In this document: piece by piece, positions 17,336 through 38,016 of the stretch | How positions within the stretch are numbered: the first letter of the stretch is position 1 | Layout: each line of letters starts with the position of its first letter | DNA from: an uncultured virus (IMG/VR IMGVR_UViG_3300049791_000126) | Taxonomy: Duplodnaviria > Heunggongvirae > Uroviricota > Caudoviricetes | Reading direction: 5' to 3' (one strand) | IMG/VR virus record: IMGVR_UViG_3300049791_000126 | Length of the DNA stretch: 64,000 nt | The notes under the pieces: generated by a model | Database searches by the model: none | What the model saw: the letters and a program-made list of their open reading frames with translations, nothing else | Told to the model about the DNA's origin: nothing | Position numbers and translations under genes: made by a program

Positions 17336-17872
17336 ATGCCCGCACTCGCCATCGCCTCCACCTATCCGACCCAGATCGCGCCCTTTCATGGGCCAGAAGA
17401 CACGATCAAAATGATGGTGTCGATGACGGTCGGCCCGCGCGGTGAGCAGTCGACGCTCGTTCGGTCGCTCAAGGACCACATCATCCGGGACATCGCGCCT
17501 AAGGACTATTTCTCGGAAATCCTGGCCGTCCGTAACTTCGTCGCTGAAAAAGTCAAGTACTCGAACGACGCCTCCGCCGTCGAGCAGGTCCAAGATCCCG
17601 AGCGCATGTGCGAGGAAATCGTGCAGCGCGGCAAGGCCGTCGCCGATTGCGACGAAATCGCGCTCCTCATCGGCACCCTCTGCCGCCAGCTGGGGCGTGA
17701 CGTGACGTACGTGACCGTAGGCTTCGGGAGGCCGGGATCCTTTGCGCACGTGTTTGCGCGGGCCCTGGAGCCCAAAAGCAACAAGTGGATCATCGTCGAT
17801 CCGGTGGCGGGCACGGATGAAGCCTCGATGCTGAAGCGCGTCACCACCTACAAGATCTGGAGTATCGGATGA
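17336..17872 (+). CDS. Transglutaminase-like cysteine protease (candidate maturation protease)
   Basis: Catalytic triad motifs ADCDE (C), FAHVF (H), WIIVDP (D). Confidence 0.8.
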   Translation: MPALAIASTYPTQIAPFHGPEDTIKMMVSMTVGPRGEQSTLVRSLKDHIIRDIAPKDYFSEILAVRNFVAEKVKYSNDASAVEQVQDPERMCEEIVQRGKAVADCDEIALLIGTLCRQLGRDVTYVTVGFGRPGSFAHVFARALEPKSNKWIIVDPVAGTDEASMLKRVTTYKIWSIG

Positions 17873-18633
17873 GCTACGTCTTGTCGGGAAAGCTTGCTGG
17901 CATGGGCGATGCATCGGGCGTGTACGCTAGCCTGATGGTCGCCTATCAAAACGACCACGAGGCCTGGCTCAAGGAAAAAGCCGCCTATGATCGCGCAGTG
18001 CAGGGCTACGCTGCGCAATCGGCCGGCGCGTCCTCGAGTTACGCCGCCGCGATGGCCGCCTACAACGCCCAAAACGCCGCGCGCGCGGCGGCCCTCGTCG
18101 CCGTCAATCAGCAAAATGCCGCCAAGGCCAAGGCAAACTCCGCCGCGGTGGCTCAAGGCGTGGTGCTCCCAGCGGGCTATCCGGGCTGCATCTCGCAGGC
18201 CCAGCACAACGCCTGGCAGGCCGACTGCGCCCGCCTCTCTGCAACCGTCAAGGGACTCGGCGCCGACCCCGCGGGCTCCCCTTGCGCGCTCGCGTTGCTT
18301 GCTGTCTGCCCGCCCCCAATCAGCGTCCCGCCTTCGCTTGGCCCGCCTCCCGTCAAGCCCGCCATGCCTCCGCCGCCGCCGCTTCGCCCTGAGCCCAGGC
18401 CTCCGACGCCACCCCCCGCGAGCGTTCCGCCGCAATCCACGGGGCCGTTTTCGGTGCCGACTCCGGCACCTTCCATCCCCACAGCAAGCTCCATTCCCCA
18501 AGCGAGCACGCCCGCAACCGTCCCTGCATCGACCAAGAGCGCGGGACTCGTCAAAAACGGGCTCATCCTGGTCGTGATCGCGGGCGGCAGCTACGCCCTC
18601 TACCGCACCTTCAAGAAGCCGAAAGCATCCTAA
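17869..18633 (+). CDS. Tail-anchored Pro/Ala-rich putative virion membrane protein
   Basis: LAGMG and VKGLG motifs; C-terminal TM plus KKPK. Confidence 0.75.
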   Translation: MSYVLSGKLAGMGDASGVYASLMVAYQNDHEAWLKEKAAYDRAVQGYAAQSAGASSSYAAAMAAYNAQNAARAAALVAVNQQNAAKAKANSAAVAQGVVLPAGYPGCISQAQHNAWQADCARLSATVKGLGADPAGSPCALALLAVCPPPISVPPSLGPPPVKPAMPPPPPLRPEPRPPTPPPASVPPQSTGPFSVPTPAPSIPTASSIPQASTPATVPASTKSAGLVKNGLILVVIAGGSYALYRTFKKPKAS

Positions 18634-19005
18634 ATGGCAGCCTGCATCGACAACAAGGTTTGGAACGCCGCGAGAGCCGCCTGCGCCGCTCGCGCCGCAT
18701 CCGTCAAGGGACTCGGCTACGTGGAGATGGGCCGCGTCAACCTGCGCGCTCTTCGTGGCCTGGGCGATCTCAACATCAACACGGCCGCCGCAGACCCAAA
18801 CGATCCCTGTGTGATCGCGAGCCAGACGCCCTGCCCGGTGTTCTCGACGCCCATCCCCTACGTGCCTACAACTCCGGGCAACACCACCCCGACCACGACT
18901 GCATCGACTGTCACCGCGGGCGGGTTCAGCCGCTGGGGCCTGCTCGCGGCGCTCGCCGCTGGCGGCGCAGCGCTCTACTTCGCGACGAAGAAGAAATCGT
19001 CATAA
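18634..19005 (+). CDS. Tail-anchored putative virion membrane protein
   Basis: VKGLG and LRGLG; DPNDPC; TM plus KKK. Confidence 0.75.
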   Translation: MAACIDNKVWNAARAACAARAASVKGLGYVEMGRVNLRALRGLGDLNINTAAADPNDPCVIASQTPCPVFSTPIPYVPTTPGNTTPTTTASTVTAGGFSRWGLLAALAAGGAALYFATKKKSS

Positions 19006-19010
19006 CCCGA

Positions 19011-19508
19011 ATGAGTTATTCACCGGCCTTCCATCCTCGATCGATCGCGAGCCTCGGCGCTTCAGCGACGGGGTCGCTCTGCCCCCAGGGCTACAAGGTC
19101 TCGTGCTCGGATCCGAGCACCTGCACGTGCCTCGAATGCCTCGAGCCGAAGGCCTGGTCGGCCTCCCAGAAGGCCTGCAACGCGCAAGGCGGAAAGCCCA
19201 TCTCCACGGACCCGAGCGATCCCTGCACGCTCGCGGATGCGATCCTGACCGCGCCCGGGAAGATCTGCTTTCCTCCGTCGTCGGCTCCCTCGCAGTACCC
19301 GCCCGATCCGTGCCCCTCGGGCCAGACGCTCCTGAGTGAAAAGGTGCCCCGACAATCGACGACCGGCGCCTGGGGAACGGTATCAGTCAGCTACTGCGCC
19401 TCGTCGCTTTCCCCCGCGGTCGCGGCGCAGGCCTACCAGAGAAATTGGGGCCTCATCATTGGCCTCGGCGTCGCAGCAGTCGTTGTCTACAAAATCGCGA
19501 CTGGCTAA
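19011..19508 (+). CDS. Cys-rich tail-anchored protein
   Basis: ATG at 19011; DPSDPC; C-terminal TM. Confidence 0.7.
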   Translation: MSYSPAFHPRSIASLGASATGSLCPQGYKVSCSDPSTCTCLECLEPKAWSASQKACNAQGGKPISTDPSDPCTLADAILTAPGKICFPPSSAPSQYPPDPCPSGQTLLSEKVPRQSTTGAWGTVSVSYCASSLSPAVAAQAYQRNWGLIIGLGVAAVVVYKIATG

Positions 19509-19530
19509 AGAGCAAGAAGAAAAATCCCCC

Positions 19531-20241
19531 ATGCCGAATTACCCCCGCTACCCTGCGCAACCATACACGGGCGATCTACCGTCCATGGTCGCGGTCGGCC
19601 CGAGCGACACGCGTTACTCATCGGGCACGAGCGAGGCGTACAGCGCGCCCTTCGATCGTCGCTATGGCCGCCGCCTTGCCGGCACTGACATGGATGTGTC
19701 CGATGAGTCCTCCGATCCCGGCTGGGCATCGAACGAGCTCAACCTACTCGCCGAGATGGACGACATCCAATCGAACGGCGTCTTCGATCCCCCGGGCACC
19801 CACCCGAACGTGCACCCCGACGCGGGCGTCTTCGCCGCGCGCTATTCCCTACCGGGCTACCACGCTCGCGAGGTGCCCTTCAGCCTGACTGAGGTCGTGG
19901 ACGCGACGACCGGCCGCCGCGTCGTCGGCGTGCCGTCGGGCGCCGTGTCGCTCGATTCGGCAGCGCAGATCGCTTTCATCGAGCAGGGTCGCTACTCCAC
20001 TCCCGAGAACGTCGTGCGCTGGCAGGAAGCGGCTCCCATGCCGGGCGTCAACATCGCCGACTGGATGCAGAATCCCCAAGGCATCCGCCAAGGGATCCAC
20101 GGGCTAGGTAGTCGCGGAATGGGCGGCTACGGTGATGCGCCCGCGCCCGTCCCGACGAACACCGCCGCGACCGTCGGCAAAGTGCTGCTCGTGGGCGCTG
20201 CAGCCGGCGCCCTCTACGCGCTCTTCAAGAAGAAGAAATAA
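19531..20241 (+). CDS. Tail-anchored putative virion protein
   Basis: ATG at 19531 after an A-rich leader; IHGLG; TM plus KKKK. Confidence 0.75.
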   Translation: MPNYPRYPAQPYTGDLPSMVAVGPSDTRYSSGTSEAYSAPFDRRYGRRLAGTDMDVSDESSDPGWASNELNLLAEMDDIQSNGVFDPPGTHPNVHPDAGVFAARYSLPGYHAREVPFSLTEVVDATTGRRVVGVPSGAVSLDSAAQIAFIEQGRYSTPENVVRWQEAAPMPGVNIADWMQNPQGIRQGIHGLGSRGMGGYGDAPAPVPTNTAATVGKVLLVGAAAGALYALFKKKK

Positions 20242-20249
20242 AAAATCCC

Positions 20250-20816
20250 ATGTTTGATTATTCAGACGAAGAAGACGAGCAAAGCGTGACCGTAGCGTCG
20301 GGCCCTTCCCAGGGTCAGGAGCTACCGGTGCGCCACAGCGACATGGTGCAAGCCAACGCCGGCTATGGCAATGCGCCGTACAACGCTGCTTCGTACCCGC
20401 TGGCGCCACTCGGCCGCGGGATGGCGGGATCGCCCGACGGCATCGGCGCGTACTCGCGCCTCTACGGCATGCCCACTCCGGGAGCGACGCGCTCCGGCGT
20501 GCTCGGGAGCTTCTTCACGGGCTCGCCGCTCGTGAGCGGCATCCGCGCGGTCAGTGGCCTCGGCGATGACGCCGCGAGCGCCGCGAGCGCGACGACCGGC
20601 CAAGCTGTGCAGGCTGCGAGCGGCATCCTCGTTGCGGCCGTCGCGGTCGGCCTCGTGCTGACGGGCGTGGGCTCGTACTACGTCGGGAAAGCCGTCGCGC
20701 CGAGCCGCGACAAAGAGATGACCTACGCCTGGTGGGGCGTGGTCGCTGGTCTCGTGGGCGGTCCCATCGGTCTCGGCATCGAGTCGATGATCGCGCTCAA
20801 CCACAAGGGTCGGTAA
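20250..20816 (+). CDS. Membrane protein with two C-terminal TMs
   Basis: VSGLG; two hydrophobic helices. Confidence 0.75.
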   Translation: MFDYSDEEDEQSVTVASGPSQGQELPVRHSDMVQANAGYGNAPYNAASYPLAPLGRGMAGSPDGIGAYSRLYGMPTPGATRSGVLGSFFTGSPLVSGIRAVSGLGDDAASAASATTGQAVQAASGILVAAVAVGLVLTGVGSYYVGKAVAPSRDKEMTYAWWGVVAGLVGGPIGLGIESMIALNHKGR

Positions 20817-21544
20817 TGAAGAACCCCGGATACCCCGCTGGCGTCCCGACGCCCTACGTGGCGCACGTCAATCCGTACCCCACGCGCTTCCACGGCGGGC
20901 TCTGGGACAGGCCCGTCTTCGGCATGCCGCAGATCCAGCAACCGACCACCGTTTTCCTTCCACCGCGAGACATCGACATGATCCCCGACAAACCCTACTC
21001 AGGCCTCGGTAACGCGGGCAACAACCCGATCGACGCGGGGGAAGGGATCTTTCGCCCGGGCGGCTACGGCGGCGGCGTCTTCGACGGGAATCTCGCCGGC
21101 GCGCCGAGTCTCGGCCGCGCCCGTACGCTCGGCGATGCGACGAGCGACCAAGCCAACTACCCCTGGGGGAAATACAGCGCGCAGACGCTCGCCCTCCAGA
21201 ACAAGATCAACCAGAACCTCATCGCTGCCGGGCTCTGCCCGATCATCGCGGACGGCAAACTCGGTCCCGCGACGTGCGGCGGGTCCGTCATCGCAGGCCC
21301 CGCTGGACTGCAGGCGATGCCATCGACCTGTCAAGACGTGAAGACGGTGCAGGACGCGAGCAAAGGCTGCGGAACGGGACCCGCGGCGCCCAATACGAAG
21401 CCCATCCCGATGACGGCTTCGATGACGCCCGTGACGAGTTCGATGCCGATGGTGAGCTCGGGCACGAAGAAAGTCTTGGGCTTCGTGGGCGGCGGGCTCC
21501 TCGCCATCGGCGCCGTGTACTTCATCAAGAAACGACGAGGCTAA
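20816..21544 (+). CDS. Peptidoglycan-binding-domain tail-anchored protein
   Basis: ALQNKIN...ADGKLGPAT (PG_binding_1-like); YSGLG; TM plus KKRR. Confidence 0.75.
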   Translation: MKNPGYPAGVPTPYVAHVNPYPTRFHGGLWDRPVFGMPQIQQPTTVFLPPRDIDMIPDKPYSGLGNAGNNPIDAGEGIFRPGGYGGGVFDGNLAGAPSLGRARTLGDATSDQANYPWGKYSAQTLALQNKINQNLIAAGLCPIIADGKLGPATCGGSVIAGPAGLQAMPSTCQDVKTVQDASKGCGTGPAAPNTKPIPMTASMTPVTSSMPMVSSGTKKVLGFVGGGLLAIGAVYFIKKRRG

Positions 21545-21547
21545 GTC

Positions 21548-22660
21548 ATGAGCATTTTCAACCCCAAGAGCAAGAACGCGACGCCGCTCAGCGGCAGCGT
21601 CATGCCGAACTACACGCCAATCAACGGGATGCGAGGCTTTTCCGGGAGCATCCTCCCGAACTACACGCCCATCGCGCGCTACCAGCAAAACCAGATGGGC
21701 GAGTATTTCACGAATGGCGCCGTGCAAGGCCTCGGATCGTCGGCTGCGCCGGGGGAAATTCCCTGGCAGTGCTGGAACGTGCAGGCCTTTCAGGATTGCC
21801 ACGCGGCGCAATGGGCAGCGGCTCACGACGACTGCGTCAAGAACGCCGCGCAATATGGCATGTCGGTCGACGACTGCACGACGGCGTACTCGGCGGGCAA
21901 TGACGGCTCGGTCTGCGTGCCGAAATACTGTGGTCAGTACGCGGCCGTCGCGGCGACCACTGCAGCGCTCGACGCGGCGACCGTGAAGAAAGCGCAGACG
22001 CAGCTGAACGCCGACCTCAGTCGAAACGGCTACAAGACGATCTCGGTCGACGGAAAGCTCGGTCCTGCCACGTGCGGCGCGGCGTTCTATCTGTATGGCA
22101 CGAACCCTCGTCAATCGACGGTGTGGACCGACTACAACATCTACGCCTACTGCGGCAACGTTGCAGGCACCAACCCCACCCTCGTCGGCGCATCGAAGCC
22201 CCTCACGACATACGTCGCGCCGACGGTCAACATCGTGCAGGGCCAACAGGTTGCAGCCGCCATCACGCATCAATGGGGCGTCGAAGACGCGGAGATAGCG
22301 GCCCTTCAAGGGAACATCAACCGCATCCTCGACAGCTACGGGTATTTGTCGATCCCCATCACGAACAAACTCGACGCGCAGACGTGCGGCGCGATGAAGT
22401 GGATCGGGGACAACACCGGCAACAACCTCCTGACCATGAACGGGCAAAATTGCCAGGCCTACACGCTGCCGACGAAGAAGCCCGCAGCGCAGTTGCCGTC
22501 GACCGCGCCGAAAGGCTCGACCCCACCGGGCGTGGCGCCGCCCGCGCCGACGCCTCCCGGGACGCACCCGCTCACGAGCGCCTCCATGCTCGTCGGCGGA
22601 CTAGCGCTCGCAGTGGCAGGCGTCGGCTACTACTACGCCAAGAAAAAAGGCATGGTCTGA
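21548..22660 (+). CDS. Tail-anchored protein with two peptidoglycan-binding-like domains
   Basis: AQTQLN...VDGKLGPAT and ALQGNIN...NKLDAQT; VQGLG; TM plus KKK. Confidence 0.75.
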   Translation: MSIFNPKSKNATPLSGSVMPNYTPINGMRGFSGSILPNYTPIARYQQNQMGEYFTNGAVQGLGSSAAPGEIPWQCWNVQAFQDCHAAQWAAAHDDCVKNAAQYGMSVDDCTTAYSAGNDGSVCVPKYCGQYAAVAATTAALDAATVKKAQTQLNADLSRNGYKTISVDGKLGPATCGAAFYLYGTNPRQSTVWTDYNIYAYCGNVAGTNPTLVGASKPLTTYVAPTVNIVQGQQVAAAITHQWGVEDAEIAALQGNINRILDSYGYLSIPITNKLDAQTCGAMKWIGDNTGNNLLTMNGQNCQAYTLPTKKPAAQLPSTAPKGSTPPGVAPPAPTPPGTHPLTSASMLVGGLALAVAGVGYYYAKKKGMV

Positions 22661-22663: not shown

Positions 22664-23074
22664 ATGACTCGCCGCACATACGTCGAAGTCGCCAACTCCT
22701 ACGCCCCTTTCACGCAGGCAGTGCTCCAGGGGCTAGGGGAAGAGACGCAACTTCAAAACGGCTGGCCCGCGGGGCGGAGCTACATCGGCATCGCGCACTT
22801 CCGCGCGCCGTATGACGAGTTCGGGTACTTCCAGGACGGGACGCTCCAAGGACTCGGCGCGGTCGCATCGAACGAGATGTTGGCGATCGACAACCGTGCG
22901 CCGGGCGCGGTCAAGCGTTTCCTCCTCGCCGGAGATCCGGTCTCGTCGCTGCGCGCGGACGTGACGCTCCCCTTCAATCAGATCCACCCGTACGTGTACG
23001 GCGTGCTCGCCGTCGCCGCGGCGGCCACGAGCTACGTCAGCTACAAGCGCTGGAAGAAGAGCCACGGAACCTGA
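22664..23074 (+). CDS. Tail-anchored protein
   Basis: LQGLG twice; TM plus KRWKK. Confidence 0.75.
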   Translation: MTRRTYVEVANSYAPFTQAVLQGLGEETQLQNGWPAGRSYIGIAHFRAPYDEFGYFQDGTLQGLGAVASNEMLAIDNRAPGAVKRFLLAGDPVSSLRADVTLPFNQIHPYVYGVLAVAAAATSYVSYKRWKKSHGT

Positions 23075-23080: not shown

Positions 23081-23971
23081 ATGTTTACTGCCACGATCTA
23101 CGATCTCGCTGGGCTCGCAGTGACCAAATTCGGTCTCCGCGGCATCGACTGGGCCGCGCTCACGACCCAAGGGCGAGGGAGCGTGTGGGATCGGGACTAC
23201 ATCACGGGCTACATGGCCCCCGCGCAAGCCGCGATGGTAGCCGCGATCGGCGGCATGGCCTTCGATGTGGGCGGCGATCCGGTGATGGTGCAGAAGAGCT
23301 ACTCGGTCAACGAAGAGGCCCTGCGATCGATCGCCTCCTCCGTCTTGCCGATCGTCAATGGCCCGAACCCCGCGCTCGGTCAAGTCGAAGTCGGGCTGTC
23401 ACGCGAAGCGATCCGTTACCTCGTGAGCCACGCCTACCAGGCGTCCTTGTACGCATTCATGCTGCACGCCGATGAGACCATTCATCACTCGGGCCTGTCG
23501 GACGCGGAGATCGCCTCCCACGCCAACACGGCAGTCGGCACCATGAACGCCCTCGTCATGATGCGGAACCTCGGTCTCTACAAAGTGCTCGGGATCGACC
23601 AGACCCAGAGCTCCCAAAAGGGCCTCGGTATTGCGCCAGCGATCGTCATCGGCGCCGTCGTCGTTTTGGTGGCGGCGCTTTGCCTAGTCGCTTGGGTCAT
23701 CGTGAGCGCGATCGATCTGACGAAGAAGAACGCCATCGTCGCCAAGGTCTGCGAGAACGCTCAGACCGCAGGGGACGCAGCGACGACGCAGCAGTGCGTC
23801 GCGACGCTGACCGATCCCAGCAAGAACGCCGCTACGACCGTCCCGAAGCTGGTCAAGGATACCCTGCTCGGGCTCGTCCCCTACGCATTCGGGGGCATCG
23901 CGATCTATGCGATGTATCTCGCCGCGCCCTACGTCATCAAGAACCTGCTCACCAAGAAGGCTTCGGCCTGA
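23081..23971 (+). CDS. Membrane protein with two TMs
   Basis: QKGLG directly before a TM; C-terminal TM plus KK. Confidence 0.75.
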   Translation: MFTATIYDLAGLAVTKFGLRGIDWAALTTQGRGSVWDRDYITGYMAPAQAAMVAAIGGMAFDVGGDPVMVQKSYSVNEEALRSIASSVLPIVNGPNPALGQVEVGLSREAIRYLVSHAYQASLYAFMLHADETIHHSGLSDAEIASHANTAVGTMNALVMMRNLGLYKVLGIDQTQSSQKGLGIAPAIVIGAVVVLVAALCLVAWVIVSAIDLTKKNAIVAKVCENAQTAGDAATTQQCVATLTDPSKNAATTVPKLVKDTLLGLVPYAFGGIAIYAMYLAAPYVIKNLLTKKASA

Positions 23972-23984: not shown

Positions 23985-24464
23985 ATGCCTGATCTTGCAT
24001 TGCTCGATATTCACAAGCGCTACACCGTCGTCACCCGCATTGGCGACGGCACCGATGGAGATTCGCTCTCCGGCCAAAACGTCAACAACTTCCCTGCGGG
24101 CGCCCTCTTCTACGTCGCCGAATCAAACCGGCTCTACGCTCTCCGCAAAGGCATCCCTGACGCAGTCGGCGAGCAAAACGGACTCAACGTCGTCGATGGC
24201 ATCGGATCGTCAGCAGCGGCGGGACGCTTCGTCGCCGTGCAGCAGTTTGCGACGGGCGTACTTTCGGCAGGGTCAGCCATCATGACGGGTTTCGATCTCT
24301 CCGCCGGCGGACACTTCCTCGTGGGCTACGTCACCCCTGGCGGCACGCAGGGTTTCCTCCGCGCCGCCAAGACCGCGGACAACGTCGTGACGGTCACGAG
24401 TTCGTCAGGATCGGACACGTCGACTGTGACCGTGCTCTATCTCGAAGATCCGACCGCAGTCTGA
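23985..24464 (+). CDS. Beta-rich putative spike/decoration protein, paralogue A
   Basis: GDSLSGQNVNNFPAGALFYV...AGRFVA...SDTSTV shared with the next gene. Confidence 0.7.
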   Translation: MPDLALLDIHKRYTVVTRIGDGTDGDSLSGQNVNNFPAGALFYVAESNRLYALRKGIPDAVGEQNGLNVVDGIGSSAAAGRFVAVQQFATGVLSAGSAIMTGFDLSAGGHFLVGYVTPGGTQGFLRAAKTADNVVTVTSSSGSDTSTVTVLYLEDPTAV

Positions 24465-24505
24465 TTCAGACACAAAAAAAACCCACAAAAAAAGAGAGTA
24501 GCAAC

Positions 24506-25018
24506 ATGGCAGACAATGCACCCACGACAATTGGCGTCGGAAAACGGACCGTCATCCTCAACTCGATCGGCACGCAGGGCGACAAGTCCGACGGTCAATC
24601 GCTCCGCGGCCAGAACGTCAACGCCTTCCCAGCGGCGACGCTCTTCTACGTCCGCGACTCGGATCGGATGTACCGCCTCAAGAAGAACATGGCCGTCGCC
24701 ATCGCCGAAGACACGAGCGGCATGGACAACGTCATCAACGGCCTCGGATCTGATGCAACCGCGGGCCGCTTCGTCGCGCTCGTGCAGATGGGCATCGGGA
24801 CATTTACTGGCGGCGAAGGCACGAGCATCGTCGATATCGCCGGATGGGATGTCAATCCGGGAGGCTGGTTTCACGTCTCGTATTCGGTGATCGGCGGATC
24901 TCCCAGCATCATCAGCGCAGAGGCGATCAGCGAGACCACGGTCCGTGTGACTTCCCAGAGCGGCACCGATACGAGCACCGTATTCGTGACGTACTATCAG
25001 ACGCCGAGCGCTGAGTAA
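24506..25018 (+). CDS. Beta-rich putative spike/decoration protein, paralogue B
   Basis: GQSLRGQNVNAFPAATLFYV...AGRFVA...TDTSTV. Confidence 0.7.
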   Translation: MADNAPTTIGVGKRTVILNSIGTQGDKSDGQSLRGQNVNAFPAATLFYVRDSDRMYRLKKNMAVAIAEDTSGMDNVINGLGSDATAGRFVALVQMGIGTFTGGEGTSIVDIAGWDVNPGGWFHVSYSVIGGSPSIISAEAISETTVRVTSQSGTDTSTVFVTYYQTPSAE

Positions 25019-25033: not shown

Positions 25034-25363
25034 ATGATCTATTCGCGCTGGCGCCCGGACACGGGCGGGTATGATTACTTCGACAGCCCGAGCACCCGCT
25101 ACGGGCTCGGCGATGATCTGCCCGTCCCGCGCCTCACGGATACCACCGAGCTTGGTGTGGCGTCGACCGACATCGGTCGCCAGACGCCGAGCGACGCGGT
25201 GCTCGTCGGATCCGGACCCATCGCTCGCGGCATGATTACGCCCATGAGCACCTCGGGCCTGAAGGGCTTGGGACTCGATTTTTCATCCGAAGGGGTGAAG
25301 CTAGGCGCCGCGATCTTGGTCGCGCTGGGGCTTGGGTTTCTGCTAGGAAAATCTCGTCGCTGA
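25034..25363 (+). CDS. Tail-anchored protein
   Basis: RYGLG and LKGLG; TM plus KSRR. Confidence 0.7.
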   Translation: MIYSRWRPDTGGYDYFDSPSTRYGLGDDLPVPRLTDTTELGVASTDIGRQTPSDAVLVGSGPIARGMITPMSTSGLKGLGLDFSSEGVKLGAAILVALGLGFLLGKSRR

Positions 25364-30331: not shown

Positions 30332-31087
30332 ATGGCCAAAGTAGTCTCGATTCGTGAGCGCGTTCATCAGCCCTTCTTCGACACCCTGATTCGGACCGGC
30401 GGTTATTCCGCGGGCACCGTGCAGGACGGCACGGACTTGTTCGGCGGCAACGGCGCTGTCCGCACGCCGGCAACGACCAACCTCCTGAACGGCTCGACGC
30501 TCCCGAGCGATCAGTCGCACGTCGTTCTGGCGCTGCGCGTGTTCAGCTGGTACCGAAACAGCATACTGCGCGTCGCGGGCGGCGTGGACGGCGAACTCGC
30601 CCTCAACGGCGACTACGGCAACTTGGCCCTGTGGACTGGTTCAGGCGCTGGCGTCGGTCAGGCCCCCGGCCAGATCGAAGACGTGTTCCGCCTGCACTGG
30701 CAGACGGAAGAGCAACTTCACTGGAGCTTCGGCACCGGCGAGAAGTTCTCGATCACGAACATGCCGACTTGGTACTTCCCCACGGGCGGCGGCCTCTCGG
30801 CCCAGCTCGGCGGCGCGACGGACCTCATCCACATGCAGAACTCCGGCACGGACGGCCACTCGGGTATCTTGCGGCTCGCCCGCGCGATCCTGATCCCCCC
30901 GCGCCAGAACATCAAGTGCACGGCGAACATCTACGCCCTGCCGACGGACGCCAACTCGCAGATCGCGGCGACCAGCCAAGGTCAGCGCAACATGTTGAGC
31001 CTCCGCGACAACTTGAACGCCATCGACGCGATCAACAAGGTCGTGACGTTCACGTTCGACGGGCTCTTCAGCCGAGACGTGCAGTAA
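30332..31087 (+). CDS. Putative major capsid protein, single jelly-roll-like
   Basis: Strong RBS (AAAAGGAAG), very high GC3, beta-rich; QPFFDT...TNLLNGSTLP pattern recalled from tailless-virus capsid proteins; flanked by hairpins; not HK97-like. Confidence 0.55.
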   Translation: MAKVVSIRERVHQPFFDTLIRTGGYSAGTVQDGTDLFGGNGAVRTPATTNLLNGSTLPSDQSHVVLALRVFSWYRNSILRVAGGVDGELALNGDYGNLALWTGSGAGVGQAPGQIEDVFRLHWQTEEQLHWSFGTGEKFSITNMPTWYFPTGGGLSAQLGGATDLIHMQNSGTDGHSGILRLARAILIPPRQNIKCTANIYALPTDANSQIAATSQGQRNMLSLRDNLNAIDAINKVVTFTFDGLFSRDVQ

Positions 31088-31129
31088 CGATTCGCTCCGC
31101 TCGGGGTCTGCGCCTGAGCGGGTTGAACC

Positions 31130-31180
31130 AACCCAGAGCAGCGGCTCGCTCTTCTTGAGCTGAGCCGCTGAATCTGGGTT
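31130..31180 (+). terminator. Long stem-loop (terminator, attenuator or processing site) after the putative MCP
   Basis: AACCCAGA-G-CAGCGGCTC-GCTC-TTCTT-GAGC-T-GAGCCGCTG-AA-TCTGGGTT followed by TCTGT. Confidence 0.6.
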
Positions 31181-31244
31181 TCTGTAGGCACCCGCCCTTC
31201 GCGGGGTACTTCATCCGCAGCGCGGAGAAGGCACTCGAAGTATC

Positions 31245-32165
31245 ATGAGCAACCCGATCGATCCGACCCGACTGATGCAGTCGGTCAACTATGCCTCCGG
31301 TGCCGCGCGTGAGGCGCTTGCACAAACGCAAGCCATCCAGAAGCGCTTGGACGACATCCAGGCGAGCTTCAAGGTGCAGCAGGGCAACCGCGAGCGCACC
31401 CCGAACTTGATGTACATCGAGAATATCCCCGGGCGCCGCGTGCCCTTCGATATGCTCGTCAACATCCCCATCGGCGCCAACGATAATGGCGTCAAGCAGG
31501 GCACGATCTTGGTGAGCCAAGAGGGCCCCTTCGTCGCCGTCAGCCGCGTCGCGACCTTCGTGAGTCAGCTGCAGCTGCAGCGTGTCGATCCCGAATCGGG
31601 TGCGAAAGCGAACTTCTTCGGCCGATCCTTCGGCCGCTACCGTCCGATCCACTCCGCCTGGGATCTGATGGACGGCATGCCGCGCCAGCAAGCGGAGCAG
31701 CAGCAAGCGTTCCCCGGCACGGGCGCCCCCCACATCCTCTCCCCCTCGAACGGCTCCCCCTTCCGATCGATGGAGGCCGACTACACGATTCAGTTCTTGA
31801 ACGCCGGCTCCTCTTTCCCACGCTCGAACATCCCCGTCCCCTCGAGCTTCTGGACCCCGCAAATCAACGCCCCATTTGCTCTCGGAGCCTTGGACGTGTT
31901 CGAGAGAGGCGAGACGCTGCAGTTCAATGTGCTGCCGCAGCACGTGAACAACCCCTCGTACGGCAACATCCAGTCCTTCGCCGGCGGCGGCGCGGGGTCC
32001 TTCCCGTTCATTGCATCCGGATGGGACTACGTCGAAGGCATCAACGACGAGGCGGATGCCGCAGCGGGCGCGACCGATCCCATCACGCGCCTTCCCGACG
32101 GCATCCTGACGATCGGTTTTCACGGTTATCGCATCGTGCAGCCCCCAGGCGCTGGCCCGTACTGA
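31245..32165 (+). CDS. Putative second capsid or vertex protein
   Basis: Beta-rich, no TM, directly after the putative MCP; ends LTIGFHGYRI. Confidence 0.5.
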   Translation: MSNPIDPTRLMQSVNYASGAAREALAQTQAIQKRLDDIQASFKVQQGNRERTPNLMYIENIPGRRVPFDMLVNIPIGANDNGVKQGTILVSQEGPFVAVSRVATFVSQLQLQRVDPESGAKANFFGRSFGRYRPIHSAWDLMDGMPRQQAEQQQAFPGTGAPHILSPSNGSPFRSMEADYTIQFLNAGSSFPRSNIPVPSSFWTPQINAPFALGALDVFERGETLQFNVLPQHVNNPSYGNIQSFAGGGAGSFPFIASGWDYVEGINDEADAAAGATDPITRLPDGILTIGFHGYRIVQPPGAGPY

Positions 32166-32179
32166 TACACTAGAGGCCA

Positions 32180-33019
32180 ATGAACCAGCCTCTGTTCAAC
32201 CCCGCGCAGCGCGCCGCCTTCGGCCAGATCCAGCAGGCGAACCCGAATCTCGCCTTCGGGCAAGGATTCGGTTCCTCGCAAGAGGGCGGCAGCATGACGG
32301 CATGCACGGCCGATCGCGTGCTGCTCGCTGGCGGTCAGCTCGTGAGCTACTTGAAGCCCGAGTCGATCATCCCGCTCGAGTATGTCTTTCGGCGCCTGCC
32401 CATCGACGGTATTTTCCAAGCGACGCCGAGCACGCCGTGCCAGTTCGAGATGGGGAGCATCAAGGTCCCGCAGCTGATGGGCTTCGTCGTGCTCGACTAC
32501 CGCTTTGCGATTTACCGCCCGAGCGGGATCGTGGCGGGCGAGTTCGTGGAGCTCGAACAGAATCGTCTTCCAACCCAGGTGGGTTGGAACCTCGAAGCCG
32601 ACAACAATCGGCAGGGCAACTTTCGCTACGAGCTGAACCCCGTCCCGCCCTTCGAAAAATCGAACCCCGCCTACCAACCCCCCCCGAATCCCGGCTACAT
32701 CCCGGGCACCCCGGTGGCAGTCCCCGCGAGTGACGATCAATTCATGCAGGCGCGCTTCACCGCAGCGCAATCGGGCACGGGCGATTTGTCGCTCATGCCG
32801 CAACGCCACCATCGCCAGGGACTGCTGCACGTCCCGGCGCCCTGGATCCTCCACTCGACCCAGACCCTCATCCCGAGCTGCCACATTTTCCGCGCGGTCA
32901 CGATCCCGATCGCGTTTTTCGAGGTCGAGATCTTCGGCTTCATGCTGCCTGACGGGCAGCTCGATGCGATGCAGCGAGCCATCGCGCCCTGCATCGAAAA
33001 GCCGGGTGGGATCGTCTGA
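32180..33019 (+). CDS. Putative third capsid or penton-like protein
   Basis: Beta-rich, no TM; late strand FEVEIFGFML resembles the terminal strands of the two preceding proteins. Confidence 0.45.
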   Translation: MNQPLFNPAQRAAFGQIQQANPNLAFGQGFGSSQEGGSMTACTADRVLLAGGQLVSYLKPESIIPLEYVFRRLPIDGIFQATPSTPCQFEMGSIKVPQLMGFVVLDYRFAIYRPSGIVAGEFVELEQNRLPTQVGWNLEADNNRQGNFRYELNPVPPFEKSNPAYQPPPNPGYIPGTPVAVPASDDQFMQARFTAAQSGTGDLSLMPQRHHRQGLLHVPAPWILHSTQTLIPSCHIFRAVTIPIAFFEVEIFGFMLPDGQLDAMQRAIAPCIEKPGGIV

Positions 33020-33164: not shown

Positions 33165-33983
33165 ATGAAATTCGGTCCCTCTTTTTACCGCAACGACGTG
33201 TCCGGCCTCGGCGCCGATGACGCATCGCTGCCGTTTGCGGACCAGGCGCTCATCAGCATCGTGAGCCCGCAGGGGTCGCTCGTGTACAGCGAGTGGGCGC
33301 GCCAAACGAGCGACAACTCCTGGCAAGAGGTGACGCCCCAGAAGGACTACCAGGCCTTCGCGGTCAGTGACTTCCAACTCGTCGCCGTCGCCAACACGAC
33401 GAGCTCTGAAGTGCAATCGCTCGCGGTCATCTCGCCCGTGCTCACGCGAGCGAGCGCAGTGGCCGCCACCTTCGAGGGCACGCCATTCGCGTACGACCAC
33501 ACCGAAGCCGTCTACGCGCAGCTCGACACGCAGTCGACGCCGCAGATCTATTTCCTGTACTGGCTCAGGCTCCGCGATCAAACCGATCCGAAAACGGGCC
33601 CGACCTCGCTCAACTACGCGGCCACCGTCGTGGGCGGCGTGCTCGCGTACATCTTGGCGATCCCGCGCGCGGGCTCTGGCCGCGCCGCGCCGCCCTCGGG
33701 ATCATTCCCGGGCGCGTTGAGCGCGCAAGCCGCGCGCGCGCCGCTCAGCATCCCGCAAACGCCTGCGGTGCAGACCACGATCCCAGCGACGCCCGCTACC
33801 TCGCCGACCGCGCCCGTGACGGCGCTGCCGAGCGTGCCGACGATGCCCCAGACGCAAGCCCAGCAAGCGTCGATGGTCTCGCCCGCCCAAGCCAACATGA
33901 AGGCGCTGCTCTGGGTCGGTCTCGGGACGGCGGCGGCCATCGGGAGCTACCGACTCATCCAACGCTACCGGAGCGCGTCGTGA
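33165..33983 (+). CDS. Tail-anchored protein
   Basis: N-terminal VSGLG; P/T/A linker; C-terminal TM plus RYR. Confidence 0.75.
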   Translation: MKFGPSFYRNDVSGLGADDASLPFADQALISIVSPQGSLVYSEWARQTSDNSWQEVTPQKDYQAFAVSDFQLVAVANTTSSEVQSLAVISPVLTRASAVAATFEGTPFAYDHTEAVYAQLDTQSTPQIYFLYWLRLRDQTDPKTGPTSLNYAATVVGGVLAYILAIPRAGSGRAAPPSGSFPGALSAQAARAPLSIPQTPAVQTTIPATPATSPTAPVTALPSVPTMPQTQAQQASMVSPAQANMKALLWVGLGTAAAIGSYRLIQRYRSAS

Positions 33984-34192
33984 GCTCCGGACTCGGAATC
34001 ATCGCGCTCCGCGGCGTCGATGGCGGCGCGGACTGCGGATGCAGCGGCATGGGGGCTGATGCCGCCGTGCCGAATCCCGTGCTCACCCCGATACCAACCA
34101 GCACGAAGGTCTTCTGGGCGCTCGCCATCGGCGCCGTGGGCTTGATCTTCTGGGCCACGCTTCAACCTCCCAAACGGAGGCTCGTGAGCTGA
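33980..34192 (+). CDS. Small membrane protein
   Basis: SSGLG and CSGMG; TM plus KRR. Confidence 0.65.
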   Translation: MSSGLGIIALRGVDGGADCGCSGMGADAAVPNPVLTPIPTSTKVFWALAIGAVGLIFWATLQPPKRRLVS

Positions 34193-34407
34193 TGGACTTC
34201 GTGATGTCCCCGGCCGATCTCGAAAAGCTCGCCGCGGCCGCCATGAAGATCGACGCGAACCCACTGAAGCTTGCCGGGCGCGCGGTTGGTCTCGGCGACG
34301 CGGAGATGAAAGCGGGCGTTCCCACGTGGGCCTGGATTGGTCTCGCGCTCGGCGCCGGCGCCCTGATCGGGATCAAATACGGACACCATGTGTCCAAGCA
34401 CTTCTGA
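34192..34407 (+). CDS. Small membrane protein
   Basis: AVGLG; C-terminal TM. Confidence 0.7.
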   Translation: MDFVMSPADLEKLAAAAMKIDANPLKLAGRAVGLGDAEMKAGVPTWAWIGLALGAGALIGIKYGHHVSKHF

Positions 34408-34420
34408 ACGGAGAACGCAC

Positions 34421-34807
34421 ATGGGACTTGGAAAAGCATTGTTGATCGGCGGCGTGGGCATCGGCGCCGTCGTGCTCCTGGTGAAACACTCGCAAGCCGC
34501 GAGCGGTGGCGCTGCTCCCGCGAACGCGGGCCCGCCCACTCCCGGCCCCGGCGCAGCCTCCCTCACCGTCCCGCCAGGCCCCAAGAACCCCACGACGCTG
34601 ACCCTGACCATCACAGAGTGGCAGCAGCAGGCCGATGCCTCGGGAAAGCAAGCCGGCCTCTGGGCGCTCGTGCAAAACGCTGCCAACCCCCAGAACGACT
34701 TCGTCGTCGTGTTTGGAAACGGAACCTCGGCGGGGATCATTCAGCAGGGCACCACGCCGAATTCTGGGCTGATTGCCCAGGCGTTCGTGGCTGGATTGAT
34801 GAAGTGA
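34421..34807 (+). CDS. N-anchored membrane protein
   Basis: RBS GGAG; MGLG then a TM. Confidence 0.7.
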   Translation: MGLGKALLIGGVGIGAVVLLVKHSQAASGGAAPANAGPPTPGPGAASLTVPPGPKNPTTLTLTITEWQQQADASGKQAGLWALVQNAANPQNDFVVVFGNGTSAGIIQQGTTPNSGLIAQAFVAGLMK

Positions 34808-34811: not shown

Positions 34812-35831
34812 ATGCGTCGTTTGCGCCGAAACAGCCTGACGCTTAGCGCGCCGGAACCATCAAAGGCACCCGAGAATTTCTCCCTCTCAGGCCTGACGGT
34901 CATCGGGATCGTCGCCAATCCGAAGACGCACGAGCCCGCGCTCGTCGTAACAGATGGCGAGTACGTGAGCCTCCGCGGACTCAAGGAAGCGAGCCCTCTT
35001 CAGCGTCTCGGCCGTGGCTACTACGAAGAGCACTCGAACGAGCCCTCCCAATTCACGGGTCTGCCCCGCTCACACACGCCGGACGGCGTGCTGATCAAGG
35101 GCAAGGGCTGGGGCACGGCGCTCTACACGGCTCTCGCTCTCGGCGCTCACCAATGCAACGAAGATCTGGTCGAGATCGAGATGTACAAACCCGGCGACGG
35201 GATCTGCTCTTGGACCGACAATCGCAGCGCGGAGGCCGACAAGTGGTGGGCGGCAGCAGTCAAGATCGGCCTGGCCGATCAGCATGTCGAGGAAGAGACC
35301 GAGCAAGACGAGGGCGTCGATCTCGAAGTATCGCCGAGCGATCTCGACCGCTTCGTGGATGAAGGCGCGGTAGTCTACGTGAACCGCGTCAACGTCGACA
35401 TCGAAAAAACGATCGAAAAAACGGTGGAGACCTACTCCTACAACGAAGCCGCCGATCGACGCCACCTTGCACTCGTCGCCATGAATGTCGAAATCCCAAA
35501 AGGCATCGGTGTCCCCGCCTCACTCGATTTTCTCTGGCGCGCTATCCGTGAGGACTCAGATCTTGTGACCGAAGCCGACGCCACAGGTCTTTTTGCTCTC
35601 GACGTGCGCGCCCTGGACCGTTCGGCCATCCACCTGCTCTCGCTCTGCTTCGGCGAAGCCGGGCTCAGTAATGCCCAGTGCGACGAGATGTACCTCCGCT
35701 ACGAGCGCGGACTGGATCCGGGCATGGCAAGTGGCCAGAGCAGGCTCTTTCAGGCCAACCAGAGCGGTCTCGGCGACGTGGAAGCCGCCCGGGAAGCCTC
35801 CGGCTGGAGCGACCTTGAGTCTCTGCCTTGA
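34812..35831 (+). CDS. Acidic protein with a GNAT-like acetyl-CoA-binding motif
   Basis: IKGKGWGTALY resembles GNAT motif A; N-terminal MRRLRRN. Confidence 0.5.
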   Translation: MRRLRRNSLTLSAPEPSKAPENFSLSGLTVIGIVANPKTHEPALVVTDGEYVSLRGLKEASPLQRLGRGYYEEHSNEPSQFTGLPRSHTPDGVLIKGKGWGTALYTALALGAHQCNEDLVEIEMYKPGDGICSWTDNRSAEADKWWAAAVKIGLADQHVEEETEQDEGVDLEVSPSDLDRFVDEGAVVYVNRVNVDIEKTIEKTVETYSYNEAADRRHLALVAMNVEIPKGIGVPASLDFLWRAIREDSDLVTEADATGLFALDVRALDRSAIHLLSLCFGEAGLSNAQCDEMYLRYERGLDPGMASGQSRLFQANQSGLGDVEAAREASGWSDLESLP

Positions 35832-36094: not shown

Positions 36095-36115
36095 AGAAAG
36101 ACAAAAGGGATCATC

Positions 36116-36571
36116 ATGTACAAAGGCATCGGAGAATCGGCTTACAACGATGGGCTGTTCTCGCAAGCAGCGCCATTCCAAGAGTACCAAGCGAGCGTGA
36201 GTCAATTCGGCGATGGTGCACTGGGGGCGTTCTCGCGCCTCGCTCCTCCGGGGCTCGTCAGCACCAATGTGCGCCGGCGTGCCTCCCACCGACCGGGAAC
36301 CCTCCCTCCTCGTGGCGGGCATTCGCTGGTCGGCATGGGGAACGCCTACCACGATGGCGTGCTCGGTCACACCTTCCTGCCCGCCTTCAGTCCGCAAGAG
36401 ATGCGCGGGCTCGGGTACGCGTACCGCGACGGCGTGCTCGGTGCCGATCCGAGCGCGACGATCCAGATCGGTCCGCCAATTCAGACCGCCCCATCGTGGA
36501 AACCCGATCTCGCCAGCGCCGGTATCGGCGTGATGGCTGGCGCGCTGCTCTTTTACGTACTGAAGCTCTGA
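36116..36571 (+). CDS. Tail-anchored protein with internal AYxDGVLG repeats
   Basis: YKGIG, LVGMG and MRGLG; C-terminal TM. Confidence 0.75.
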   Translation: MYKGIGESAYNDGLFSQAAPFQEYQASVSQFGDGALGAFSRLAPPGLVSTNVRRRASHRPGTLPPRGGHSLVGMGNAYHDGVLGHTFLPAFSPQEMRGLGYAYRDGVLGADPSATIQIGPPIQTAPSWKPDLASAGIGVMAGALLFYVLKL

Positions 36572-36619
36572 GCCCGGTCCTCGTTGGATCCCCATGCCCC
36601 AGGTGTTACCCTCCGCTGA

Positions 36620-37291
36620 ATGGCGAAAGAAGGCTTTCTCGGCGCCCTCGGGCGCATCGCGAGTCAATTCGCGGACGGCGCCCCCGAAGGCCCGCGCAAT
36701 GTCCTCTTTGCCATCGGTCCCTGGATCAATGATCTCACCCGCAACGCAACCCAGCATTGGCTCCCGCAGCTGCTCCTCGGCATCCCGTGCGAGGTCATCT
36801 ACCGCGACGCGCAGACGCAGATCGGTGTCCCCTGCTCGAGTCCTGCGATTGCCGCCTGCAGCATCTGTCGGAAGCCCGTGTGCCTCGACCACAGCTTCGT
36901 CTCCCGCATGGGGCAAGCCGCTTGCTTCGGCTGCATCCAGCAAGGCATCTCCGATCACGCCCCCAAAATTCCATGGCCAGCGGGCACGCGTGGTAATCCG
37001 TCCGATCCTCGATCGACACCCGGCGGACAGGCGTCCTCGCCCGGGCCTCAGCCGAGAGAGCCGCCGCCCCCAGCGACTCCTCCGCCGAATCCGATGGACG
37101 TGCGCATCGCTGCCGCCCGCAAGGTGCTCCGAGTCAAGCGCAGCGCGACCTTCGTTGAGGTGCAAGTCGCCTACAAGCGCGAAGCCCTCAAGTGGCACCC
37201 CGATCGCAACGGGGGAAGCCATGACGCGAAACAGCGATTCATCGCGGCAACGGCCGCCTACGATCTCCTGAAAAAGGCCTACGACCAATGA
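36620..37291 (+). CDS. Zn-finger (B-box-like) plus C-terminal J-domain protein
   Basis: CSICRKPVCLDH...CFGC; VLRV...AYKREALKWHPDRN...F...AYDLL. Confidence 0.9.
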   Translation: MAKEGFLGALGRIASQFADGAPEGPRNVLFAIGPWINDLTRNATQHWLPQLLLGIPCEVIYRDAQTQIGVPCSSPAIAACSICRKPVCLDHSFVSRMGQAACFGCIQQGISDHAPKIPWPAGTRGNPSDPRSTPGGQASSPGPQPREPPPPATPPPNPMDVRIAAARKVLRVKRSATFVEVQVAYKREALKWHPDRNGGSHDAKQRFIAATAAYDLLKKAYDQ

Positions 37292-37749
37292 GCTACGCCG
37301 AAATCAAGCCGCAGTACTACCGGATGCATCAACCGGATTCGCCGTGGCACGCGGGCTCTCCCGGCTGGTCGACGGCGCCCTGGCCGTCGTTCATGCCGAA
37401 CCCCAACCTCGTCGGTCCCCCGCGGCTCGCGGTGGAAGGGCTCGGGGCGTACTTCAAGCCGGTGTACGAAAAGCCGATTGCAGGGCTGGGGATGTTCCCG
37501 CAGAAGAGCACGTACCGCCCGGTCGACGGCGTCGGTGAGTATTCTCGGACAGGGCTCGGGGCGTACTTCAAGCCGGTGTACGAGAAGCCGATCGCGGGTC
37601 TCGGTTGCCCCTGCGCTGCGCGCGGCGTCGGTGACGGTGCGGATCCGCTCACCACGAATTCCGGCGCGATGCGCTACGACGTAGTCGTCCCGGTCGCGAT
37701 CATCGGAGCCATCACCGGCTTCGCTGTCTGGGTATCGCTCCAGAAGTGA
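37288..37749 (+). CDS. Tail-anchored protein with GLG-delimited repeats
   Basis: Six GLG/GVG motifs; C-terminal TM. Confidence 0.75.
   Translation: MSYAEIKPQYYRMHQPDSPWHAGSPGWSTAPWPSFMPNPNLVGPPRLAVEGLGAYFKPVYEKPIAGLGMFPQKSTYRPVDGVGEYSRTGLGAYFKPVYEKPIAGLGCPCAARGVGDGADPLTTNSGAMRYDVVVPVAIIGAITGFAVWVSLQK
37438..37605 (+). repeat. 54-bp coding direct repeat (37438-37491 and 37552-37605)
   Basis: Both copies encode GLGAYFKPVYEKPIAGLG. Confidence 0.9.
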
Positions 37750-37752
37750 CCC

Positions 37753-38016
37753 ATGAGCTACGCCCGCTCCATCCGAGGACTCGGAGCCGATTGCGGCCCG
37801 TGCACGATCGCCGCCGGTGATGCCTGTGAGATCTGTCCCGACGGTGTGAGCGATGACTTCCCCGAGTGCGCGGGCTGCGTCAACGGCATGCGCCAGACAG
37901 TCATCTCGGCCGCCGAGCAGAGCCTGATCTTCCCCATCGTCGCAGGCGTCGTGACGACCCTCGCGGTTGCCTGGCTCTCGACGAAGCTGCTCGGGCGAGG
38001 CAAGAAAGCCGCGTAA
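37753..38016 (+). CDS. Small Cys-rich tail-anchored protein
   Basis: IRGLG at the N-terminus; three CxxC; TM plus RGKK. Confidence 0.75.
   Translation: MSYARSIRGLGADCGPCTIAAGDACEICPDGVSDDFPECAGCVNGMRQTVISAAEQSLIFPIVAGVVTTLAVAWLSTKLLGRGKKAA

Follow-up and report, generated by a model that had tools for sequence, protein, structure and literature searches.

A block of 29 genes, all on the + strand at positions 17336-38016 of a 64,000-nucleotide stretch of DNA from an uncultured virus (IMG/VR IMGVR_UViG_3300049791_000126; the whole stretch is called the window below), encodes proteins that share a short peptide motif built around Gly-Leu-Gly (GLG). A key finding from our analysis is that this motif is selected at the level of the protein, is conserved among related viruses and is restricted to this one module, whose first gene (17336-17872) encodes an enzyme with a transglutaminase-like fold and an intact Cys-His-Asp triad that is present in every related record examined. 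The likeliest reading, to which we give a probability of roughly 0.4, is that this enzyme trims motif-bearing precursors during maturation of the virus particle.

A glycine-centred motif is concentrated in one gene module

Gene calling with a codon-usage model trained on the long open reading frames of the window gave 110 genes, 81 of them outside the block. Within the block GLG occurs 34 times, in 20 of the 29 proteins, against 5.0 ± 2.3 expected from 1000 within-protein shuffles, and it is the most over-represented tripeptide there (z 12), far above what a glycine-rich background would give. Outside the block, GLG stays at chance (7 copies against 5.4 ± 2.4 expected, in 7 of the 81 proteins), in agreement with a preliminary description of this DNA, made from its letters alone, that had called the motif rare elsewhere in the window. 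With a hydrophobic residue placed before it, [LIVMFYW]-x-G-L-G, the count is 23 against 1.5 expected in the block and 1 against 1.7 outside; the broader pattern [LIVMFYW]-x-G-[LMIV]-G has 31 copies in 17 of the 29 block proteins against 4.1 expected. All of the pentapeptides that had been listed from the block are present in the genes to which they had been assigned (LAGMG, VKGLG twice, LRGLG, IHGLG, VSGLG twice, YSGLG, VQGLG, LQGLG twice, LKGLG, MYGLG, VNGLG twice, LVGMG, MRGLG, VEGLG, IAGLG twice and IRGLG), and IIGLG, INGLG, VAGLG and WVGLG are further instances.

The same restriction is seen in a relative of the virus, the IMG/VR record G001 (135,429 bp, with a terminal direct repeat, rated complete, circular), with which the window is collinear at 73-89% nucleotide identity. 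There, GLG occurs 31 times against 5.1 expected at 110-130 kb and 21 times against about 21 expected in the other 115 kb, so that the excess is limited to the same module of about 20 kb.

In its general form the signal reads [hydrophobic]-x-[G/S]-[L/M/F]-G, and the next residue is mostly A, D, E or S. It often stands directly after a starting Met-Ser-Tyr (MSY) or ahead of a C-terminal membrane anchor, at a distance of a few to about 40 residues. Modest residue preferences emerge from a logo of 355 non-identical GLG contexts, at -3 (G/A/S), -2 (M/I/L/V), -1 (S/N), +1 (A/E), +2 (Y/D) and +3 (F/P/E). MSY is itself the commonest start among the proteins of the block and of related loci (50 of 564), often leading directly into x-G-[LVM]-G; G[LMF]G falls within the first 28 residues in 20 of the 50 MSY proteins and in 79 of the 514 others. 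In the window, four of the 29 block proteins begin in this way (17869, 19011, 37288 and 37753) and none of the 81 others.

Block proteins are richer in glycine than the rest of the window, which might suggest that the motif is an artefact of composition, of a repeat in the DNA or of shared ancestry. We tested and rejected this explanation, to which we give almost no weight. None of the shuffles of the block exceeded 13 copies, against the 34 observed, and the three capsid candidates of the block (starts 30332, 31245 and 32180), which are of similar glycine content, lack GLG, as had been noted, and their orthologues carry it at chance (in 6, 2 and 7 of 21 sequences, where 5.2, 3.6 and 3.8 were expected, respectively). 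Eighteen different 9-mers, with all four Gly codons among them, encode the 34 sites. The corresponding nucleotide pattern has 34 copies in the coding frame and one to six in each of the other five frames, so that selection acts on the peptide and not on the DNA. Likewise, an all-against-all BLAST comparison of the 29 proteins found two paralogous pairs, neither aligning through the motif, so that paralogy does not explain GLG. A side observation concerns codon choice at these sites: Gly codons are less biased in the motif (GGC in 24 of 68) than in the block overall (383 of 645), and the motif Leu codon is CTC in 26 of 34.

The motif is conserved across related viruses

Relatives were gathered as the 22 IMG/VR records (38-182 kb) that carry the 306-residue capsid candidate at 36-94% identity. 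Among the 25 related loci compared, L001 and L004, and likewise L003 and L005, share one genome, and L006 is nearly identical to L007. GLG is in excess throughout, at least 3-fold in 16 loci, 2-3-fold in eight and 1.6-fold in one, and it is kept family by family in relatives whose capsid candidate is down to 36% identical. Conservation of the motif in homologues, which had been proposed as a check, was borne out: six carrier families keep GLG far above expectation (Table 1), and families without it stay without it, as in the 25382 family (0 of 15) and the family of the J-domain protein at 36620 (0 of 16).

What is conserved is in several cases the motif itself and not its surroundings. In the 22664 family, for example, the flanks diverge while the motif stays, LQGLGEE corresponding to FQGLGAA, FAGFGAD or FAGLGAA. 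In the 33165 family, the motif marks the end of N-terminal leaders whose length varies greatly, and the conserved body starts after it. In the family of the 71-residue protein, the first Gly of GLG (G33) is invariant and L34 nearly so among 15 sequences. The motif also varies: one set of loci has SLG, and other loci have GFG, GMG or GYG.

A transglutaminase-like enzyme is encoded at the head of the module

The product of 17336-17872 matches the Pfam family Transglut_core (PF01841) with an E value of 6.1e-6 (26.9 bits against a cut-off of 23), and the same match is precomputed on most of its homologues. Its triad, described earlier as intact, indeed is: C105, H138 and D155 are invariant in an alignment of 28 sequences and at least 90% conserved in one of 85 (A3), which reaches down to 25% identity. 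An AlphaFold2 model built on A3 has a predicted local distance difference test (pLDDT) value of 96.1, and Foldseek aligns it, at probability 1.00 and template-modelling (TM) scores of 0.43-0.54, with the transglutaminase-like putative proteases 3isr and 3kd4, PNGase, TglA, LapG and PeiW/PeiP. A search of PDB sequences with the enzyme profile gave six matches, all with E of at least 0.5, and an exhaustive profile search found 3276 representatives at E <= 0.001. By model match, triad order and fold, the enzyme is a member of the transglutaminase-like superfamily.

The gene is present as a single copy in all 22 related records. In 18 of them it lies on the strand of the capsid genes, 12-21 kb upstream; in the four most divergent (G015, G016, G017 and G019) it lies on the other strand.

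The block enzyme carries no GLG, and several of its homologues bear the tag in an N-terminal leader. Seven of the nine N-extended homologues in alignment A2 have h-x-G-[LIF]-[GA] (h, hydrophobic) or G-x-L-G directly before the conserved core, and shorter forms start at exactly this point. Among the 85 sequences of A3, 17 have long leaders, and [GSA][LMFIV]G is found in 10 of these 17, where shuffles predict 3.6. At four divergent loci the only start codons available to the enzyme are upstream of an [FM]-L-G, so that the leader must be translated. A complex prediction that paired the enzyme (A3) with residues 1-45 of the 71-residue tagged protein scored 0.00 in a run made without controls, and counts neither for nor against a link.

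Of 50,697 phage records, one holds a relative of the enzyme, SSIP-1 (Salisaeta icosahedral phage 1), by way of its protein gp34 (tblastn E 3e-3). Against the SSIP-1 proteome, the enzyme finds gp34 by blastp at 2.6e-8, with 23% identity over 116 residues. The best fold match of the enzyme in BFVD is an unnamed viral protein of 304 residues (TM-score 0.73), which from its equal length we guess to be gp34. The protein gp34 (304 residues) is annotated as structural, and no other cultured virus gave a relative of the enzyme. SSIP-1 has an internal membrane and no tail (PMC6356626). G-[LM]-G lies within the first 45 residues of four of the 24 proteins encoded by SSIP-1 open reading frames 34-57 and of none of the 33 others (Fisher p about 0.03, by hand calculation). 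Among the structural proteins of SSIP-1, gp37 has G-[LM]-G at residues 34-36 and gp53 has it at residues 31-33. SSIP-1 differs in its 44-kb genome and in having no overall GLG excess (5 copies against 5.9 expected), and when eight block families, the three capsid candidates among them, were compared with SSIP-1 proteins by hhalign, the best probability was 8%.

Perhaps, instead, the block enzyme serves in entry or acts on the wall as part of the particle, or is a transglutaminase that forms cross-links, and has no connection with the motif, which something else would then read. As an entry enzyme it could be an endo- or isopeptidase directed at the envelope of the host. We regard this reading as improbable. 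The fold matches do include the pseudomurein endoisopeptidases PeiW and PeiP of methanogen viruses (PeiP of phage psiM2), TglA and transglutaminases, peptidoglycan-binding-like repeats occur in the block, and gp34 is annotated as structural, as entry enzymes are. However, the block enzyme is a bare catalytic domain of 178 residues with neither a wall-binding module nor a transmembrane helix, G001 has separate SLT, CHAP and lysozyme genes elsewhere, and the motif is found on the enzyme's own leaders.

A second reader for the motif had been proposed in the product of 9400-10176, labelled a C1 peptidase. No library confirmed the label, as there was no Pfam, PHROG or PDB match, and the papain-like order of residues is one seen by eye. 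The gene shares the orientation of the block and is 8 kb upstream of it, but a homologue was found in just three of the 22 related records, and in one of the nine that are at least 90% complete, by a single-sequence search that very distant homologues could escape; this makes it an unlikely partner of the motif. Moreover, GLG is enriched in records without the gene (22 copies against 3.9 expected in L009, 17 against 4.4 in L014 and 22 against 6.3 in L021). That this protein reads the motif is therefore very unlikely.

Cleavage signal or docking tag

Three conserved beta-rich proteins, many C-terminal transmembrane helices and a 699-residue basic protein lead us to read the block proteins as particle proteins. 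By our own hydropathy rule, 17 of the 29 have a C-terminal transmembrane helix, and most of these end in a Lys/Arg-rich tail. We infer that the block is the particle module, for membrane and core, of an undescribed 110-180 kb family of bacterial viruses that lack the hallmark genes of tailed phages.

On this basis we propose that the transglutaminase-fold enzyme would itself be a component of the particle, that it would recognise the signal, and that it would trim precursors at or next to it as the particle matures. In some relatives the enzyme may also remove its own N-terminal leader, and the tag may in addition help to bring proteins into the particle, a role that the capsid-targeting sequence has in phage T4. 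Cutting is favoured by the protease-type fold with its triad, by the universality of the enzyme and its position at the head of the module, by the variable leaders that end at the motif, and by the tagged leader of the enzyme itself; the structural annotation of gp34 also counts for this reading. The preliminary description had seen in the motif a cleavage or sorting signal read by either of two cysteine enzymes, on the adenovirus pattern. Enrichment, conservation and a universal protease-type enzyme support that proposal in part; its C1 candidate is unlikely, and the block enzyme is not homologous to the adenovirus protease.

A serious alternative, of almost equal fit and held tentatively, is that the motif is never cut and works as a docking or assembly tag. 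It would bind one common partner, perhaps a capsid face, a scaffold or a patch of membrane, and so recruit proteins into the particle; the enzyme would then use the tag for its own packaging or be unrelated to it. Several observations fit such a tag and weigh against cutting. Tandem repeats of GLG-EYFSSG (11 residues) and of GLGAYFKPVYEKPIAGLG (15 residues), units of the GLG-EYF/AYF kind, vary in copy number; if cut, they would yield tiny peptides, and they look more like multivalent binding sites. Copies at the extreme N-terminus (MSY-x-GLG, MGLG, MSSGLG) would allow only three to six residues to be removed, and four G[LM]G copies lie within predicted transmembrane helices. In the 71-residue family a longer conserved block, G-L-G-x-x-E-x-x-A-G-[VI]-P-x-W-x-W, includes GLG, as would be expected of a structural or binding element. 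Two further observations speak against a strict need for the motif. In the 25034 family the first GLG is lost (NIN) in distant orthologues that keep the adjacent DDLP. The basic domain of the 699-residue protein has a GVG at its end, which was considered as a conserved release site and rejected, as orthologues have [FY]-[RK]-[RK]-N-x-[FVI] there. The case for cutting is also weakened by the Foldseek neighbours of the enzyme, which span protease, wall isopeptidase, PNGase, acyltransferase and cross-linker. Finally, every one of the 22 records that carry the capsid gene has the enzyme as well, so that there is no natural control; co-occurrence, which had been proposed as a check, marks the enzyme as a core gene and cannot show that the motif depends on it.

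Residue preferences on both sides of the motif also suit docking, and the tags on the enzyme leaders fit packaging of the enzyme equally well. On the other hand, the variable length of the leaders and the conservation that begins right after the motif are more typical of propeptides, and a universally conserved enzyme of protease fold heads the module.

The cleavage reading can be carried further. In its fullest form, which we consider possible but doubtful, a packaged transglutaminase-fold protease would activate itself by removing its tagged leader and trim some 20 membrane-anchored and core precursors at hydrophobic-x-Gly-Leu-Gly, including a protamine-like, DNA-condensing protein of about 400 residues, the tag would double as the address that directs these proteins to the particle, and the family would be a widespread one of tailless, membrane-containing bacterial viruses of 110-180 kb in which an adenovirus-style code evolved independently.

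Gene content of the module and its surroundings

The coordinates and features of the block genes are collected in Table 1.

Table 1. Genes of the motif-bearing block and the upstream peptidase candidate, with motif copies and, by family, the members that carry GLG (expected number in parentheses). TMH, transmembrane helix; MSY, Met-Ser-Tyr.
Position (strand)	Product	Motif copies	Other features	GLG in family
9400..10176 (+)	258 residues		8 kb upstream of block; Gln/Cys/His/Asn order papain-like by eye	
17336..17872 (+)	Transglutaminase-like Cys-His-Asp enzyme, 178 residues	No GLG of its own	First gene of block	
17869..18633 (+)	254 residues	LAGMG at 9, VKGLG at 127	MSY start, Pro-rich linker, C-terminal TMH then basic tail	
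18634..19005 (+)	123 residues	VKGLG at 24, LRGLG at 40	C-terminal TMH then KKKSS	
19011..19508 (+)	165 residues, Cys-rich	ASLGA near N-terminus, IIGLG inside C-terminal TMH	MSY start	
19531..20241 (+)	236 residues	IHGLGSRGMG about 20 residues before C-terminal TMH	KKKK after TMH	
20250..20816 (+)	188 residues	VSGLG at 101 before first TMH, PIGLG in second	Two TMHs	
20816..21544 (+)	242 residues	YSGLG at 61	DGKLGPATCG peptidoglycan-binding-like repeat, C-terminal TMH	8/9 (2.4)
21548..22660 (+)	370 residues	GEYFTNGAVQGLG at 49-63	Weak PG_binding_1-like repeats, C-terminal TMH	
22664..23074 (+)	136 residues	LQGLG at 21 and 61	Both sites kept in orthologues	6/6 (0.5)
23081..23971 (+)	Membrane protein, 296 residues	QKGLG directly before TMH		
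23985..25018 (+)	Two paralogous beta-rich proteins, 159 and 170 residues	VDGIG / INGLG at same position	Weak K1-lyase_C match	
25034..25363 (+)	109 residues	RYGLGDDLPVP at 22, LKGLG at 76	C-terminal TMH	
28089..30188 (+)	699 residues	Six GLG after the TMHs, incl. three GLGEYFSSG repeats	Residues 1 to about 395 are 42% Lys+Arg, then TMHs	14/15 (5.9)
30332..33019 (+)	Three capsid candidates, 251, 306 and 279 residues (starts 30332, 31245, 32180)	No GLG	Kept in all 22 related loci	
33165..33983 (+)	272 residues	VSGLG at end of variable N-terminal leader (SLG or HLG in distant orthologues)	Conserved body after motif	11/15 (1.7)
33980..34807 (+)	Three small membrane proteins, 70, 71 and 128 residues	MSSGLG + CSGMG; AVGLGDAE; MGLG		34192 family, 12/15 (2.4)
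34812..35831 (+)	339 residues, soluble	QSGLGD 20 residues from C-terminus	Few relatives	
36116..36571 (+)	151 residues	MYKGIG, LVGMG, MRGLG	Each copy then x-A-Y-x-D-G-[VL]-[LF]; C-terminal TMH	
36620..37291 (+)	J-domain protein	No GLG	DnaJ domain 168-219, CxxC pairs	
37288..37749 (+)	153 residues	Four GLG, GLGAYFKPVYEKPIAGLG repeats	MSY start, C-terminal TMH	6/7 (1.0)
37753..38016 (+)	87 residues, Cys-rich	Starts MSYARSIRGLGAD	C-terminal TMH, basic tail	

The 699-residue protein has a protamine-like basic part and a conserved C-terminus, ...PAGILQTDGGQGVFG, and its architecture is kept in 15 further loci. Five of its orthologues were first called short, because Arg-rich stretches score poorly in the gene caller; we rejected the idea that they are split genes, as their reading frames continue upstream. 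In the protein at 37288-37749 the number of GLGAYFKPVYEKPIAGLG repeats differs in an orthologue that is 61% identical. The J-domain protein has matches in 17 related loci, and none of those at the 15 loci counted contains GLG; it may recruit the host Hsp70 for the many disordered, tail-anchored proteins of the block. The two adjacent proteins at 20816-22660 share their DGKLGPATCG repeats, with a weak PG_binding_1 match, and may be particle-borne binders of the cell wall.

For the capsid candidates, an AlphaFold2 model of 31245-32165 built on 25 sequences had a pLDDT of 47, too low for a fold search, and the capsid-candidate profile matched no PDB sequence. A tblastn search of the 50,697 phage records returned no match to the candidate at 30332-31087 or to the region 25952-27532. 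The 306-residue candidate has 696 public homologues (E <= 0.001), on contigs of up to about 138 kb, none of them annotated, and we found no description of this virus group or of the motif in the literature searched. Five matches in genome collections (L056-L060) place contigs of the family in bins labelled Pseudomonadota, Pseudomonadales, Pirellulales, Gemmatimonadota and the archaeal Methanomicrobiales; as these labels are inconsistent, the contigs are probably mis-binned viral contigs, and assignment of a host failed.

Block proteins received almost no names from Pfam or PHROGs. Upstream of the block these databases name ThyX, DUF1643, the DnaA C-terminal domain, DnaB and MazG, all of replication or nucleotide metabolism, and downstream of it glycosyltransferases, a Dam methylase and an integrase. 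No Pfam or PHROG family of terminase, portal or HK97-fold capsid was found among the 110 window proteins, nor any such Pfam family among 83 further G001 proteins (genes for at least 90 residues in the part beyond the window, with those across six 20-kb cut points excluded), and Terminase_6N was absent from three related records; the head module of tailed phages (Caudoviricetes) was thus not recognised in either set.

Besides the wall-enzyme genes named above, the 83 G001 proteins add collagen-repeat, fibre-like proteins and two sigma factors. At L028:11032-19123 and L029:2822-5104, outside the window, G001 encodes four collagen-repeat proteins (468, 472, 761 and 1452 residues) together with the two sigma-factor genes, which may provide fibres and the virus's own control of transcription. 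In the window, a tyrosine integrase is encoded at 57227-58243 on the - strand; with the complete 135-kb circle of G001 in mind, the virus may be temperate or episomal. The gene at 14003-16612, immediately upstream of the block, encodes 869 residues with a long, charged, coiled-coil-like middle, a Pro/Gln-rich C-terminal part and no family match, which could be a scaffold or ruler protein. At 45716-46797 on the - strand, a HigB-like toxin domain is fused to a DUF968/HNH domain, and a small helix-turn-helix antitoxin-like gene adjoins it; a HicB-like antitoxin gene lies elsewhere in the window (11005-11286, + strand).

Comparison with known maturation systems

We know of no bacterial membrane-containing virus in which a protease matures the particle. 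Should the tag prove to be a cutting code, a maturation system of one enzyme and many substrates would be seen for the first time in a bacterial virus that is not a tailed phage, convergent with those of adenoviruses and giant eukaryotic viruses but resting on another protease fold. Should it be a docking signal, it would be a simple and portable label by which proteins are addressed to a membrane-containing capsid and loaded into it. In both cases, the particle proteome of a large, uncultivated virus family can be recognised by the motif from sequence alone.

A double-glycine leader with a C39 export system, in which the peptidase is fused to an ABC exporter, was rejected for this block, as Pfam matched neither a C39 domain nor, above threshold, an ABC transporter in the window, the only ABC_tran match being a weak P-loop match on a kinase-like protein.

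The adenovirus protease (adenain, AVP) cuts core and cement precursors at (M/I/L)XGX-G and (M/I/L)XGG-X. The likeness to the block lies in a short signal that is centred on Gly, has a hydrophobic residue four positions ahead of the last Gly and is borne by many unrelated particle proteins, in carriers that include a very basic, DNA-condensing protein, in a cysteine enzyme encoded alongside, and in capsid proteins that are left untagged. The systems differ in that the block enzyme has a transglutaminase/papain-type fold with the order Cys-His-Asp, whereas adenain has the clan CE fold, and in that here the host would be a bacterium and the carriers are mostly tail-anchored membrane proteins. An adenain-type clan CE enzyme (His, Glu/Asp, (Gln), Cys) was accordingly rejected for 17336-17872 on residue order and fold, and no match to clan CE families was found in the window or among the 83 scanned G001 proteins. 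Since the enzyme is not a homologue of adenain, any likeness to adenoviruses would be convergent: of the features of an adenain-type system, the substrate consensus (M/I/L)-X-G-X-G is found, at the level of the pattern, and the clan CE fold is not.

In bacteria, the adhesin LapA is released by LapG, a cysteine protease of the transglutaminase-like type, which cuts at an Ala-Ala motif. LapG shares with the block enzyme the fold class, nearly the same size (181 against 178 residues) and the Cys-His-Asp triad (Foldseek E 9e-4 to 3e-3, TM-score about 0.5; 4u65_E and 4fgq_A), and its small-residue substrate site likewise lies near a membrane-retention element. It differs in being periplasmic and calcium-dependent, in having one substrate, and in having no relation to the block enzyme that was found at the sequence level. 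Judged by the model, LapG is the nearest characterised protease in fold and size.

In phage T4, the capsid-targeting sequence is a short N-terminal leader common to unrelated internal proteins that serves their incorporation and ends at a site for the gp21 protease. Similarly, the prohead proteases of giant phages such as SPN3US and phiKZ are reported to cut many head proteins at one short motif (PMC5694885; PMC7411985). On the cleavage reading, these systems would have in common with the block one enzyme, many head proteins and a shared short signal; they differ in belonging to tailed phages with HK97-fold capsids and in using serine proteases of the herpesvirus assemblin type. By analogy, the capsid-targeting sequence of T4 with gp21 and the giant-phage prohead proteases would be the nearest functional models for the tagged proteins and the enzyme described here.

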